From a virus, in IMG/VR virus record IMGVR_UViG_3300035490_000050, positions 32,001 through 96,000 of that record: a stretch of 64,000 nt of DNA; one strand, 5' to 3'. The notes below the pieces were generated by a model that had not been told where the DNA came from, ran no database searches, and saw only the letters and a program-made list of their open reading frames with translations. This document shows, in pieces, positions 57,535 to 64,000 of this stretch (position 1 is the stretch's first letter; every line of letters starts with the position of its first letter). A program made the position numbers and the translations under genes.

Positions 57535-57618
57535 ATGCGATTCCTATTATCCAGTTCGCGCTATTGCCTCTCATCGTTGCTGAGAGCAGGCTCGCCATAT
57601 CTGGATAAAGGGATATAA
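57535..57618 (+). CDS. Attenuator leader peptide 1, MRFLLSSSRYCLSSLLRAGSPYLDKGI
   Basis: Codons match all 10 downstream anticodons; overlaps the antiterminator. Confidence 0.8.
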   Translation: MRFLLSSSRYCLSSLLRAGSPYLDKGI

Positions 57619-58490: not shown

Positions 58491-58495
58491 GTTGT

Positions 58496-58586
58496 GCGCG
58501 TGTGGCTCAGTGGCGACGGCGGCAGTCTGTAGAACTGCTACCCTTTGCGGTGAACATCGGTGGTTCGACTCCATCCACGCGCACCA
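58496..58586 (+). tRNA. tRNA-Tyr(GTA)
   Basis: gcagt-ct-GTA-ga-actgc; long arm; CCA. Confidence 0.92.
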
Positions 58587-58588
58587 CT

Positions 58589-58741
58589 CTACTTTGCCAG
58601 CGCCCGTTTTACAGTTCTCTTTTTCTGAGAAACCTTGGTGTAGGGAGTCTGGTTGAGGGCAGGTTTCACTGTTCCTGAGACCTTGTGTTTGGTGTACGGT
58701 TTTTCTTGCAGGGCTGGCTTGACTTCGCGCTTCGTTGGCAT
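58589..58741 (-). CDS. 50 aa basic microprotein with internal VKPALxxxPYTK duplication
   Basis: MPTKREVKPALQEKPYTKHKVSGTVKPALNQTPYTKVSQKKRTVKRALAK; GAGG RBS. Confidence 0.7.
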   Translation of the reverse strand: MPTKREVKPALQEKPYTKHKVSGTVKPALNQTPYTKVSQKKRTVKRALAK

Positions 58742-59363: not shown

Positions 59364-59438
59364 TGCGGGTTGGTAGCGCAGTGTCATACGTCAGGCTCAT
59401 AACCTGAAAATCTGGTGCAAGTCCAGTACCCGCAACCA
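59364..59438 (+). tRNA. tRNA-Met(CAT), initiator-like
   Basis: tcagg-ct-CAT-aa-cctga; acceptor end ccgcaacca as in tRNA-fMet; own promoter TTGACA-17-TACCTT. Confidence 0.8.
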
Positions 59439-59646
59439 ATCTGGAGGATGTCATGGGAAATGGCATAATTCCGCATTAGCGGCTAGAAACCGCTAATCAG
59501 TAGAGCGAGAATCCGCTGCGGGAGGTAGTATATGCAGCAGCAGAAAAGGTTGGGGGAGATGGAGAAATCCCTCCCCCAGTCTCACAAGTAAAACGAGGCG
59601 TCGACACAAACCCACGCCTATCGCCTACAAATGAAAGTGGTGTGTT

Positions 59647-60330
59647 TTGAAAATCATCGGCGGTCATGATTATTATGATGTAGCACTGTCGATGGGCATT
59701 GATCCACGGATTGTTCTCTTGCGCGGAAAGAGTAAGAGCATACCAGTAAAGGCTGCTGGCGGGAGTTTGCTTGATCGGTACTTGGAACTCAAGCCACAGG
59801 TTACGTACAACACCTACGGCATAGGAATTGAGAATGTTGCCGTGGCATTTTGTGGGAAGGTTTATCGTGGCGCTGTAGGATTGAAGTCGCTGGAGAAGCC
59901 AGAAGGACTCTGGTCAGCAGATAAGGCAAGAGCATTCGTCGCGCAGGAAAAGAATAGAAAGATTGACGTGGACTCACGGTGGTATGATCGCAGAAACAGG
60001 ATGACCATGGAGGAATATTTCACTCCTTTTGATGCTCCTGATGCTTTGCGGAACTACATGATCGCCAACAAGATTTCGATTCTGGTTGAAGAGCCGCCAA
60101 AGTACCGTGGCGAGGAAAGCTATTTTCAGGTCAATCCTTTCACGCTGAAGCAACTAGGATTCGCAAAGGCTCTTGACCCATACACGGCTTTTCAGGAACT
60201 TTCGATGTGGATCGGTGGAGTTCTTGGGGGAACGAGTCCAGAGATCGTGACGATCAAGGATGACAAGGTTTTGATTGAGAATCACGGGTTTGACAACCGA
60301 TTCTCATTTCGCGGTCCTCGGATCGCATAG
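59647..60330 (+). CDS. Conserved phage hypothetical protein
   Basis: MKIIG..DYYD...LK.LGF.KALDP.TAFQELSMW...HGFD...SFR. Confidence 0.75.
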   Translation: MKIIGGHDYYDVALSMGIDPRIVLLRGKSKSIPVKAAGGSLLDRYLELKPQVTYNTYGIGIENVAVAFCGKVYRGAVGLKSLEKPEGLWSADKARAFVAQEKNRKIDVDSRWYDRRNRMTMEEYFTPFDAPDALRNYMIANKISILVEEPPKYRGEESYFQVNPFTLKQLGFAKALDPYTAFQELSMWIGGVLGGTSPEIVTIKDDKVLIENHGFDNRFSFRGPRIA

Positions 60331-61345: not shown

Positions 61346-61423
61346 CAATTCAAGACTCGCGACCTGATCTGAGTCAACGGGCTGGCACGGTGACCAGTGC
61401 ATCAACCGAAAAGGAGAATAACG

Positions 61424-61798
61424 ATGCGTACCCGTTGCAAGTTCAGAGTCGTTGGTATTGAGAGTGTTGAACACGCGATCTTCAAGAAGGTATACAAGGC
61501 CGATGTGAGCGCCGAAGAATATGAAGCGATCACATCTCAAGAGTGGACCGAATATCCTCCCAATCCAGACAGGCGTCTCGGTGGTGGTCCTGAGCCAAAG
61601 TTGTACAAGCAGATATTTCTAGCGAACGCTCAGAATATCCGATTGGCTGCTCAGTACGACCCTTCCATTCCCGAAGATCAGCGGTTCATGGAAGCCACAC
61701 CCTCTGGGGAAATCAAGATGTATATTTCCAATCCCGCAGTGATAAACGGCTTCAAGATCGGAACGAACTACTACGTTGATCTGACGCCCTGCGATTAA
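61424..61798 (+). CDS. Conserved phage hypothetical protein
   Basis: R.KF...F.EATPSG.I.M.I.NP....F..G..YYVD.TP. Confidence 0.75.
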   Translation: MRTRCKFRVVGIESVEHAIFKKVYKADVSAEEYEAITSQEWTEYPPNPDRRLGGGPEPKLYKQIFLANAQNIRLAAQYDPSIPEDQRFMEATPSGEIKMYISNPAVINGFKIGTNYYVDLTPCD

Positions 61799-61820
61799 CA
61801 TTGTCTGCCGTACCAGCACA

Positions 61821-61886: not shown

Positions 61887-62636
61887 TTACTTCTTTGGAC
61901 TTCCCATGTCAACAGGAGCCATCCGACGCGACATTCCTGCCGCTCTCATTGCCCGCACGGGAACGCTCTTGTAGAAGTCGTTCGTCGTTCGTCCAACGCT
62001 TGCGGAGAACGCCATCGTAGCGTGCGCAGTGTTGGCGTAGGCTGCTCTTACATTGCTTTGGTCGAAGACAACCGAATTGGAGAGATTGATGCCCATTGAA
62101 TCTCCAGCCGTGAACGCACTGAGATCAGCGCCGAGGAAGACGAAGGTCCAGTTTCCTTCCTTCTCTTTATTCTCGATCAGTTCCTTGATCTTCGCAAGAT
62201 TGAATTCTCGTGACGAATTTTCCTGCCCGTCCGTCAAGATGACGGTGAGAATCTTTGGCATCATCCCAAGTGACGGAACGCCTGCAAATGATGCTTCGAC
62301 CTTGGAAACAGTGGACCCGATAGCGTCGAGAAGCGCGGTGCCGCCGCATGGAACGTAACTCTGCTTGGTGAGTTCCGGCACCTCAGAGAGAGCGATGGAT
62401 ACGTGACGGTTTTCAAACCGCGTATCGAACAATGTAAGGCTGAAAGCATACGTCGATTTCTTGTCTTTTTTCAACTCACTGATATACGTGTTGAAACCGC
62501 CGATGGTGTCGTCCAAACAGGTAGCCATGGAACCGGACTTGTCGAGAACAAAGTTGATGAGAACCTTACCGTTTTTTGCGGCGGCTGGATTTGACTTCTT
62601 TGCAATCTTCTTTGGTGCGGATTTCTTTGCTGGCAT
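61887..62636 (-). CDS. vWA domain protein with basic N-terminal tail
   Basis: MIDAS motif DKSGSM, GGTALLDAIG, ILTDGQENSS. Confidence 0.9.
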   Translation of the reverse strand: MPAKKSAPKKIAKKSNPAAAKNGKVLINFVLDKSGSMATCLDDTIGGFNTYISELKKDKKSTYAFSLTLFDTRFENRHVSIALSEVPELTKQSYVPCGGTALLDAIGSTVSKVEASFAGVPSLGMMPKILTVILTDGQENSSREFNLAKIKELIENKEKEGNWTFVFLGADLSAFTAGDSMGINLSNSVVFDQSNVRAAYANTAHATMAFSASVGRTTNDFYKSVPVRAMRAAGMSRRMAPVDMGSPKK

Positions 62637-62871
62637 TCGTATTCTCCTGTGCTGCTAACGCGGTTGAAAGTGTTGATTCAGGTACGCGGTAGCACCGCTC
62701 CGCGCCAAGGAAGCTGTAGATTGCAGGTCCAGGTTCACGCCGCGAGTTGTAAACGTCATTCAGATATTGCGGCGAGACACCCATCGTCTGCGCAAATTCC
62801 TTTTGCGTCCTCTCCCCTTGAATCTTCTGCATGATTTCCAAGAGTCCTGCGATATTCGTCACCCTGTACAT
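62566..62871 (-). CDS. XRE-like HTH protein
   Basis: TQKEFA..MGVSPQYL.DV....REPG. Confidence 0.7.
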   Translation of the reverse strand: MYRVTNIAGLLEIMQKIQGERTQKEFAQTMGVSPQYLNDVYNSRREPGPAIYSFLGAERCYRVPESTLSTALAAQENTNASKEIRTKEDCKEVKSSRRKKR

Positions 62872-62933
62872 AAATACTATAATACGCGGATTTGTGGTAT
62901 AATGCAAGTAGAAAGTTTTTGAAAAGGAGTTTC

Positions 62934-63524
62934 ATGGGAGCGAAGCGTTTACCTGCCACCGTAAAAAATCTGACGCCTATGCGTGCTGCATGGCTTGCTG
63001 CTCTGATTGATGGAGAAGGAACAATCAGTATCCACCTAACGCCTAACGGATCAAAACGTGCGTGGATCGCGGTTTACAACACAAACACCGATATTCTTGA
63101 CAAATGTGCCTATGTGTGTGGCGCTGGCGTTGTTCGGAAGAAAATGCCGGGAAAGAAGAATGATGGATTCAAACGATTGCAAATGTGGGAATGGGAACTT
63201 GATAGAGCAAGAGATGCTCACCATCTTCTATGCCAACTTTATCCGTACCTGATAATCAAGCAACACAAAGCAATAGACCTCATTGTTCATTGGAGGGACG
63301 AAAGAACCAACGATATTTCAGAAAACGACCACGACGACGTAAAGGAAATGAAGATGGCGCAGCGTCATTTAAGCAACAGGGAATTTTCGGTCGCACTTGG
63401 TTTCGGATACGGATGCGTCAGCGGAATATATTCTCGGAATGATCCGCTTTCATCGAGAGTCAGAATCGCGTTGGATAAATACAAGACAGAAATGCCAAAC
63501 AGAAAAGAATTATCTTGGCGATGA
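62934..63524 (+). CDS. LAGLIDADG homing endonuclease with C-terminal HTH-like segment
   Basis: WLAALIDGEGTI...NTN...L.PYL.IK. Confidence 0.85.
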   Translation: MGAKRLPATVKNLTPMRAAWLAALIDGEGTISIHLTPNGSKRAWIAVYNTNTDILDKCAYVCGAGVVRKKMPGKKNDGFKRLQMWEWELDRARDAHHLLCQLYPYLIIKQHKAIDLIVHWRDERTNDISENDHDDVKEMKMAQRHLSNREFSVALGFGYGCVSGIYSRNDPLSSRVRIALDKYKTEMPNRKELSWR

Positions 63525-63533
63525 AAATAGTCC

Positions 63534-63562
63534 TTGACAGCGATTCCCATCTGCGCTAAGGT
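63534..63562 (+). promoter_or_regulatory. Promoter of tRNA operon 2
   Basis: TTGACA-17-TAAGGT; ATG 7 nt downstream, so leaderless. Confidence 0.7.
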
Positions 63563-63569
63563 AGAAAAC

Positions 63570-63650
63570 ATGAAGACGCGATTCCAAAACGCCAATCCAA
63601 CAGCGACGGCAACGCCGCAGGGTCATGGTGCGGAATCAGGGTCTCAGTAG
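63570..63650 (+). CDS. Attenuator leader peptide 2, MKTRFQNANPTATATPQGHGAESGSQ
   Basis: Contains CAA, CAG, AAC/AAT and GGT/GGG matching the downstream tRNAs; 3' end pairs with the terminator arm. Confidence 0.75.
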   Translation: MKTRFQNANPTATATPQGHGAESGSQ

Positions 63651-63683
63651 GATTTTTACTCGCATAGAGCGAGTAAAACTGAA

Positions 63684-63724
63684 GAGGCCCGGTCCAAAGA
63701 AGCGGATCGGGCCTCGGTGCTTTT
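63684..63724 (+). terminator. Attenuator terminator 2
   Basis: gaggcccggtcc/ggatcgggcctc 12 bp stem then ggtgctttt (imperfect U tract). Confidence 0.7.
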
Positions 63725-63732
63725 AGGGATGT

Positions 63733-63808
63733 TCCACGGTCGTCTAACTGTGAAGACACCGAACTGTTAATTCGGGTAATGCAGGTCAGAATCCTGCCTG
63801 TGGAGCCA
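63733..63808 (+). tRNA. tRNA-Asn(GTT), atypical T-loop
   Basis: ccgaa-ct-GTT-aa-ttcgg; T-loop TCAGAAT; CCA. Confidence 0.85.
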
Positions 63809-63817
63809 GTTTGAAGT

Positions 63818-63893
63818 TGGGGAGAAGTTCAACGGGTGGAACAATCGGCTCTGACCCGATAGGCAGAAAGTTCGAGACTTTCCTCCCCAGCCA
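63818..63893 (+). tRNA. tRNA-Gln(CTG)
   Basis: atcgg-ct-CTG-ac-ccgat; U1-A72; CCA. Confidence 0.9.
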
Positions 63894-63900
63894 AGATCGT

Positions 63901-63974
63901 TGCCCGTTCGTTCAACGGTAGGACACCGCCCTTTGGAGGCGAGGATGGCGGTTCAAGTCCGTCACGGGTAGCCA
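63901..63974 (+). tRNA. tRNA-Gln(TTG)
   Basis: cgcc-ct-TTG-ga-ggcg; CCA. Confidence 0.9.
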
Positions 63975-63981
63975 AATTAAC

Positions 63982-64000
63982 GCGGGCATAGCTCAGTGGT
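63982..64000 (+). tRNA. 5' fragment of a tRNA, probably Gly (cut by window edge)
   Basis: gcgggcatagctcagtggt acceptor and D-arm start. Confidence 0.55.

Follow-up and report, generated by a model that had tools for sequence, protein, structure and literature searches.

A probable leader-peptide attenuator with a codon panel for the eleven-gene tRNA operon that follows it in an uncultured phage

To our knowledge, the means by which phages control their own tRNA genes, and the reason why they carry near-complete tRNA sets, are largely unknown, and leader-peptide attenuation is known so far from genes for amino-acid metabolism and for synthetases but not from tRNA genes. We report the analysis of a small, self-contained element of about 190 nucleotides (nt) that lies at the end of a 64,000-nt stretch of viral DNA, bases 32001-96000 of the 136,454-base record IMGVR_UViG_3300035490_000050 (hereafter the window). 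The element comprises a promoter-like site, a short open reading frame (ORF) that we call leader 2 and a series of alternative RNA pairings, and it immediately precedes a cluster of phage tRNA genes. Positions are those of the window unless given as genome positions, all features described for the element and its tRNA genes are on the + strand, and genes beyond the window end were read from the whole record.

The element opens with the -35 hexamer TTGACA (63534-63539), read directly from the sequence and identical in all eight of the natural variants introduced below. It is followed after 17 nt by a -10-like hexamer, TAAGGT (63557-63562), of which A2 and T6 are kept in every variant; TAAGGT is too unlike TATAAT for a consensus promoter scan to have listed it. 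The ATG of leader 2 stands exactly 7 nt past the -10 hexamer, again in eight of eight variants, and begins a frame of 26 codons and a TAG stop (63570-63650, stop at 63648-63650) that encodes MKTRFQNANPTATATPQGHGAESGSQ and is open between the promoter and tRNA-Asn in every variant. The spacer between the two hexamers is 17 nt in seven variants and 18 nt in one, such that a single start geometry (TTGACA, 17-18 nt, NANNNT, 7 nt, ATG) describes them all. Given the fixed distance from -10 to ATG and the want of a conserved Shine-Dalgarno sequence, the transcript is predicted to begin at or next to the AUG and hence to be leaderless. A preliminary description of the window had placed a TTGACA-17-TAAGGT promoter, an ATG at the predicted +1 and a 26-amino-acid leader here, and its coordinates and letters agree with ours. 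Its list of the leader 2 codons is also correct, including the lack of Leu, Cys and Tyr codons; leader 1, an earlier sister element (57535-57618), indeed has no Gln, Asn, Thr or His codons, and the CGA TTC said to be shared by the two is found in both, each beginning ATG CGA TTC.

Behind the element lie tRNA-Asn(GTT) (63733-63808), tRNA-Gln(CTG) (63818-63893) and tRNA-Gln(TTG) (63901-63974), each a tRNA prediction, and the 5' part of a fourth gene (63982-64000) that is cut by the window end. The preliminary description had named the first three and supposed the fourth to be Gly, which ARAGORN, run on the whole record, identifies as Gly(GCC). This cluster, cluster 2, crosses the window end and reaches genome position 97262, its order being Asn, Gln, Gln, Gly(GCC), Thr(CGT), an HNH gene, Thr(TGT), His(GTG), Ala(TGC), Phe(GAA), Pro(TGG) and Arg(ACG). 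It thus holds eleven tRNA genes for nine amino acids, with no Leu, Ser, Tyr or Cys among them, and the gene between the two Thr tRNAs encodes an HNH endonuclease (genome 96237-96779; Pfam HNH, E 1.3e-14). ARAGORN finds 31 tRNA genes in the whole record. Cluster 1 (Leu x4, Cys, Ser x3, Tyr) lies behind leader 1, cluster 3 (Trp, Met, Lys x2, Val, Thr(GGT), Ile, Gly(TCC)) lies behind a third leader, and Asp and Glu are solitary.

The codons of leader 2 correspond closely to the tRNAs of the cluster that it precedes. Under strict wobble rules, in which G34 reads C or U, C34 reads G, U34 reads A or G and A34 reads U, C or A, the frame holds a cognate codon for each of the 11 cluster 2 tRNAs, and cognate codons make up 19 of the 25 internal ones; with U34 taken to read whole four-codon boxes, codons 3-21 form a run of 19 cognate codons. 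To judge the rarity of this match, all 272,760 segments of 25 codons in the six genome frames were scanned under strict wobble, and of these 178 cover 11/11 and 13 have at least 19 cognate codons. Complete cover together with at least 17 cognate codons is found only for segments in the leader 2 frame (genome 95552-95579), the best other segment with 11/11 cover having 16. Each of the three leaders covers its own operon in full (9/9, 11/11 and 8/8 for leaders 1, 2 and 3) and other operons to at most 6/11, leader 2 covering just 1/9 of cluster 1 and 3/8 of cluster 3.

This correspondence also works as an annotation rule, the leader codons having foretold the downstream tRNAs before these were seen. 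The preliminary description had predicted from them that the operon would continue beyond 64000 with Gly, Ala, Thr, Pro, His and possibly Lys, to the exclusion of Leu, Ser, Tyr and Cys. ARAGORN finds the first five there and none of the excluded four in the cluster, but Lys is absent, the Lys tRNAs being in cluster 3. Phe and Arg(ACG) had not been predicted and are present in cluster 2, and leader 2 holds TTC and CGA. A third leader, anticipated for Arg, Val, Ile, Phe and Trp, does exist (leader 3, genome 100646-100732) and precedes Trp, Met, Lys, Lys, Val, Thr(GGT), Ile and Gly(TCC). Downstream tRNAs unrelated to the leader codons, the outcome that had been named as contrary to the proposal, were looked for in the record and did not occur. 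The operons may be separately inducible, as had been suggested, although this is argued from sequence.

Relatives of the element were sought through the neighbouring 227-aa (amino acid) protein, for which 148 metagenome homologues were found. Thirty of them were aligned, the alignment served to retrieve loci from viral and metagenome contigs, and two motif scans of viral contigs added further leader loci. In all, eight distinct leader 2 variants were obtained, each before an Asn-Gln-Gln-Gly... cluster: that of the window and those of L048 (MMTTRFQHANPTAATTPQGNRARKTGSQ), L023 (= L012 = L024; MRLIPQHRAFTPATATPQGNRGAD), L026 (MRLTFTHTTFTPATAQAPQGNRGAD), L021 (MKTLFHTATFTPATAQAPQGNRGAD), L047 (MMTFTTHTATQAPTQPAGNRGSAG), L018 (MSSRFHNFAQTPAANQPTGNRATTG) and L051 (MRVQFTHTANQAPTQPAGNRGSA). 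All eight cover the 11 core anticodons in frame, and CAA and CAG, as well as ACA and ACG, are both present in every one; frames +1 and +2 of the same letters, tested for seven variants, cover 4-9 of the 11. The order of the residues varies while the set of codons is kept. The sole His codon is at position 19 in the window and at 6-8 in the other variants, CAA is found at codon 6, 7, 6, 16, 16, 11, 10 or 11 and Phe at codons 4-10. Between the window and L048, reciprocal single-base changes (CAC/AAC near codon 7-8 and AAT/CAT near 19-20) swap His and Asn, and both amino acids stay covered. The downstream tRNA set in L023/L024, L047 and L051 comprises the same nine amino acids, the Ala gene of L051 being assumed.

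The frame is also constrained with respect to region 2, a segment at its 3' end (63631-63647) that takes part in the pairings described below. Variants whose stop comes after region 2 have 69 or 75 nt between the ATG and that region, and those whose stop is placed at its beginning have 74, 77, 77, 74, 77 or 74 nt, so that within each class the insertions and deletions are multiples of three and the frame is kept. In all eight variants the stop codon falls between 5 nt before the start of region 2 and 1 nt past its end. A blind scan of all loci and the genome for the start geometry followed by an ORF of 15-35 codons returned 12 distinct peptides, namely the 8 leader 2 variants, 3 homologues of leader 1 that are rich in Leu, Ser, Cys and Tyr, and 1 that is unrelated. 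The leader 1 homologues (L010:1462, L011:1365 and L022:3859) begin MGNLSLLSSLSYCLSS..., MKNLCLSLSSSYSLSLS... and MKTLSLSSCLYLSSS..., and have the geometry TTGACA, 17-18 nt, -10, 6-8 nt, ATG, with the order of their Leu, Ser, Cys and Tyr residues shuffled; in each case the first Leu tRNA of a Leu/Ser/Tyr cluster follows about 125-140 nt downstream. Other candidates were discarded: five matches of a scan for further variants of the L018 type proved to be unrelated palindromic hairpins, and L052, one of four matches of a looser motif scan, is a chance match.

It could be supposed from these data that the frame encodes a working micropeptide, or is untranslated, that the hairpins are a constitutive terminator or processing signal and that the codon match is a by-product of composition or descent. 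The C-terminal half of the leader (TPATA..PQGNRG) is fairly conserved as both peptide and RNA, as this would have it, and the expression of a leader without a Shine-Dalgarno sequence is only predicted. A peptide or a compositional bias would, however, hardly be shuffled in order while 11/11 cover holds in eight of eight variants, and the out-of-frame controls fail and the match is unique in the genome. The two other leaders of this genome fit the differing tRNA sets that they precede, the leader 1 homologues of relatives are likewise Leu/Ser/Cys/Tyr-rich in shuffled order, and the stop is always at region 2. We consider this explanation very unlikely.

The leader as a whole folds beyond its shuffles, with a z-score of -5.15 for its minimum free energy (MFE), and several parts can be distinguished in it. 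Region 1 (63571-63585) consists of the first transcribed nucleotides as predicted, among them the UG of the AUG, and pairs with region 2 in the single-sequence MFE structure. Region 2, the core of which is GGGTCTCAG (63639-63647), pairs either with region 1 or with the 5' arm of a terminator-like hairpin (63684-63715), found by a terminator scan, which has 12 base pairs (bp), 9 of them G-C, and of which the first seven nt, GAGGCCC, constitute region 3. A middle hairpin (63654-63678), of perfect 10 bp, TTTTACTCGC/GCGAGTAAAA (63654-63663 and 63669-63678), stands between regions 2 and 3. Beyond the terminator-like hairpin is a tail, GGTGCTTTTAGGGA (63716-63729, read directly), with a short T-run at 63721-63724 and a TTAGG motif.

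In the 1:2 pairing, nt 2-10 of the transcript, which include the UG of the AUG in seven of eight variants, pair with region 2 to form a hairpin that encloses the whole frame. This 5'-end:region 2 hairpin is present in the single-sequence MFE structure of all eight variants, with z-scores of -2.2 to -4.8. In the alternative 2:3 pairing, or putative antiterminator, GGGTCTC (63639-63645) pairs with GAGGCCC (63684-63690) over 7 bp (-13.9 kcal/mol), spanning the middle hairpin and overlapping the base of the terminator. The preliminary description had already paired the leader 3' end with the terminator 5' arm, which stands, though in a simpler register than the bulged one it proposed; the perfect hairpin that it saw enclosed by the antiterminator is as described. 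For the window the energies of the three states are -27.3 (1:2), -26.3 (antiterminator) and -24.8 kcal/mol (terminator).

Across the eight-sequence alignment, the terminated-state structure is paired in 85% of 213 cells and has both sides changed in 11 of 27 pairs, a result that not one of 500 shuffles equalled; controls slid along the alignment gave at most 56%. The terminator is paired in 93.1% of cells with both sides changed in 6 of 13 pairs, and the middle hairpin, which is degenerate in L018, has both sides changed in 5 of 10. Both hairpins thus covary. When the distal terminator arms were paired across variants, the mean was -6.1 kcal/mol for arms of one variant and -2.3 kcal/mol for arms of different variants, a comparison to which we give no weight, the arms of L047 and L051 having been wrongly delimited. 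The antiterminator helix is paired in 92.9% of cells. The region 2 core is invariant in seven variants and altered in L018, where region 2 reads GGGGCCTCAG and region 3 CTGAGGCCCC, giving 10 perfect pairs (-22.7 kcal/mol), and where region 1 has GCC instead of GAC.

The position of a translating ribosome was modelled by masking a 29-nt footprint at each A-site codon of a transcript cut before the terminator 3' arm. The 2:3 pairing is possible with the A-site up to about codon 18 in the window, or 21 in relatives, and is blocked once the ribosome occupies the stop or one of the 4-6 codons before it. Nearly all of the cognate run falls in the stretch where 2:3 pairing is possible, and the non-cognate codons are at both ends of the frame, within regions 1 and 2. 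That a ribosome at the stop codon would block the antiterminator, as first proposed from the window, is therefore borne out by footprint masking and by the placement of the stop at region 2 in all eight variants.

Taken together, the layout, the codon match and its rarity, the conservation and the alternative pairings suggest that the element is probably a ribosome-mediated (leader-peptide) transcription attenuator that senses tRNA supply ahead of the eleven-gene operon; from them we infer the start of transcription at the ATG, the translation of the frame, termination at the hairpin and read-through upon slow decoding. Transcription would start at or next to the A of the ATG and yield a leaderless mRNA, on which one ribosome would read the 26-codon frame, codons 3-21 serving as a panel decoded by the operon's own tRNAs. 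If all panel codons were decoded fast, the ribosome would reach the stop and cover region 2, whereupon the terminator hairpin (63684-63715) would form and most transcripts would end before tRNA-Asn. With no ribosome, the 5' end would pair with region 2, leading to the same outcome, termination, with the start codon hidden. If any panel codon were slow, its charged tRNA being scarce, the ribosome would stall upstream with the inner 1:2 stem melted and region 2 free, and region 2 could then pair with GAGGCCC across the middle hairpin and allow RNA polymerase to proceed into the tRNA genes. Such a device would amount to negative feedback on tRNA supply and to an OR-gate that a shortage of any of the eleven tRNAs could trip. 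At a guess, the T-rich sequence that directly follows the 1:2 hairpin (GATTTTTAC) may be a pause site at which the ribosome catches up.

Sensing of tRNA need not involve a ribosome, and since it is tRNA genes that would be regulated, by a leader rich in structure, one might think of an RNA that binds tRNA directly in the manner of a T-box. A comparison of 63480-63760 with Rfam by cmscan, at E up to 10, gave only two chance matches to small nucleolar RNAs and no match to a T-box or to the Trp, His, Thr, Leu or similar leader families. Eleven different tRNAs would moreover have to be bound, and the frame-preserving indels and the fixed geometry of ATG and stop point to translation. Direct sensing is in our judgement extremely improbable.

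A number of observations weigh against the attenuator interpretation. As regards the codon panel, the eight leader variants are relatives and not independent draws, and the contigs of L012, L018, L021 and L026 end early, with incomplete tRNA sets. The leader does not visibly follow lineage-specific tRNAs, L023 having an extra Arg(TCG) and a leader without CGA or CGG, and GCC (in 8/8 variants) and ACC (5/8) lie within the cognate run and are cognate only under relaxed U34 wobble. As regards the pairings, the antiterminator helix has both sides changed in 0 of 7 pairs, three pairs being invariant, and covaries only in the register-shifted L018, a single lineage. The 1:2 hairpin was not recovered by RNAalifold on a MAFFT alignment of the full leaders, in which the 5' halves are misaligned by indels; only the terminator was. 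Translation of the leader, for want of a Shine-Dalgarno sequence, rests on the predicted leaderless start. When the full transcript is folded at equilibrium the terminator has a probability of 1.0 at every ribosome position, and the 2:3 pairing also forms on the cut transcript with no ribosome present, for which reasons the switch would have to be kinetic. The switch in classical attenuators is likewise kinetic.

Four metatranscriptome runs from two studies, in which 6-14% of sampled words were present, were compared as contigs. Contigs from one study match 58495-58739, 59396-59662, 61364-61809, 62394-62655 and 63912-64000 without a single difference from the window, so that this phage or a near-identical one was in those libraries, contigs of this kind being unable to separate transcript from carried-over DNA. 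No RNA-library contig lies over 63552-63785, so that these libraries speak neither for nor against the leader, of which the start, the translation and the 3' ends are predicted.

The weakest step is termination at the 63684-63715 hairpin, on account of its poor T-run. In the window this is four T (63721-63724), 5 nt past the stem, and at least five T within 10 nt past the stem are found in only four of the eight variants; L026, L021, L047 and L018 have at most three, their stem being followed by GNGCGT(T)AGGAG with no T-run. The terminator hairpin of the preliminary description is thus present as a G+C-rich, covarying 12-bp stem but is weaker than was implied, with its T-run short and offset. 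A TTAGGAG, TTAGGAT or TAGGAG motif is found 6-10 nt past the hairpin in all eight variants (63721-63729 in the window, just before tRNA-Asn), and in L021 and L047 a TTAGGAG-type motif is the ribosome-binding site of an inserted ORF.

The short or missing T-runs lead us to retain a further explanation, in which the sensor of tRNA is the same and its output is not: the hairpin would be no intrinsic terminator, and the folds would govern Rho access, RNase processing or the stability of the pre-tRNA 5' leader, or the ORFs that follow. Consistent with this, the hairpin is kept and covaries even where the T-run is poor, as in the window, or absent, as in four of the eight variants; the TTAGGAG/TTAGGAT motif beyond it is conserved throughout; and ORFs are inserted past the hairpin in L018, L021 and L047, starting with an ATG after that motif in the latter two. 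Against it, leaders 1 and 3, the sister elements in this genome, each have a canonical terminator with a T-run at the end, the competing pairing takes up precisely those bases at the foot of the stem that matter for intrinsic termination, and the window, L023, L048 and L051 have a T-rich tail and no following ORF. On this evidence we regard an output other than termination as unlikely, and transcription attenuation as the better account of the element.

Leader-peptide attenuators that respond to several amino acids are known from enterobacteria, where thrL senses Thr and Ile and ilvL, of the ilvGMEDA operon, senses Leu, Val and Ile. The phage element shares with these a short promoter-proximal ORF with regulatory codons for several amino acids, predicted 1:2, 2:3 and 3:4 alternative pairings, a stop so placed that region 2 would be covered by a ribosome completing the frame, and a hairpin ahead of the first gene. 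It differs in that it regulates tRNA genes and not biosynthetic enzymes, and in that its panel allots one or two codons to each of the eleven tRNAs, which serve nine amino acids, whereas thrL and ilvL have runs for one to three amino acids. It also differs in being predicted leaderless, in having a region 1 that includes the start codon, in its weak T-run and in matching no sequence family. The pheST attenuator of E. coli, with its pheM leader, controls phenylalanyl-tRNA synthetase, and so is a case of leader-peptide attenuation of a translation apparatus gene in response to charged tRNA supply; unlike the phage element, it involves one amino acid, a protein product and a host gene, and no tRNA genes are regulated. 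T-box riboswitches similarly exert terminator/antiterminator control in response to the state of tRNA, but each binds a single uncharged tRNA itself, with no ribosome involved.

Leader-peptide attenuation of tRNA genes was not met with in the literature that we searched, subscription journals lying mostly outside its reach. An attenuator-like leader at the E. coli tRNA-Phe genes was considered as a precedent and dropped. The K-12 record has only a promoter-like site in the approximately 105 nt before pheV (the sequence was read for pheV only) and lists no leader feature before pheV or pheU, the latter lying about 106 nt after dicD. The trn operon of Anabaena sp. PCC 7120 is an inducible long tRNA array that is controlled via promoter repeats (PMC8421152). 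It resembles the phage operon in being a supernumerary set of tRNA genes that moves horizontally, and it is induced under impaired translation; it differs in its mode of control, the main text of that paper containing none of 'attenuat', 'leader peptide' and 'terminator' (PMC8421152).

The surroundings of the element vary among relatives. The junction between the leader hairpin and tRNA-Asn is an insertion spot for small ORFs (L018:2340-2950, L021:3087-3248 and L047:4590-5030), the insert of L018 being HNH-like by eye only, and the gap between Thr(CGT) and Thr(TGT) is a second such spot. Immediately 5' of the leader promoter is a 210-aa ORF (62892-63524) with a LAGLIDADG-like stretch, seen by eye, and no Pfam match; it may be a mobile insertion, as the sequence there is different in L023, L026 and L048. 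A small ORF that has a good ribosome-binding site (GAAAGAGGAAGACGATG) opens past Gly(GCC), at genome 96075 (window-equivalent 64075), and extends into the Thr(CGT) gene that comes next, and similar sequence stands before Thr(CGT) in L017, from L017:1640.

Two further tRNAs were noted. The tRNA-Ala(TGC) genes L023:5356-5427 and L047:6388-6459 are identical, lie between His and Phe and were missed by ARAGORN, scoring 51.6 bits with Infernal; their position 33, universally U elsewhere, is C, they have a G3:U70 pair, and their identity is assigned by anticodon and G3:U70. A tRNA with a TCA anticodon lies 3' of cluster 2 (genome 97379-97452, window-equivalent 65379-65452; L001:3346-3419). ARAGORN calls it SeC, it matches the Rfam tRNA family with 63.4 bits and it is preceded by a promoter-like site of its own, TTGCAA, 17 nt, TAGGCT, noted by eye and missed by the promoter scan. 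It may read UGA; it has no codon in leader 2, and the leader 2 stop is TAG.

No cultured phage can stand in for this one. The leader and 20 kb of the window, compared by blastn and megablast with a phage collection, gave no match, and tblastn of the 227-aa neighbour protein against that collection gave at most 29.9% identity over the full or near-full query and up to 33.7% over a third of it. A vWA-like neighbour protein, used as a probe of viral contigs, found no relatives. A scan of bacterial and archaeal genomes for the region 2/region 3 motif gave 0 matches, and so neither a prophage copy nor a clue to the host.

The element is small and self-contained, and eight natural variants of it and two sister elements with other codon sets are to hand, which makes it directly testable by reporter and cell-free assays. 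A leader that sampled each tRNA of its own operon would provide direct feedback from decoding speed to tRNA synthesis. We put forward, tentatively and as the less probable side of the question, that large uncultured phages may split the genetic code into several tRNA regulons, with a leaderless, single-shot codon panel as the gate of each, on which one ribosome would test whether all tRNAs of the regulon are available. This would be a general, self-contained tRNA homeostat and counter-defence device, one that has yet to be described in print. If such codon-panel regulons do exist, a phage would refill exactly those tRNAs that are running short, for example after the action of a host anticodon nuclease or a phage-driven loss of host tRNA.

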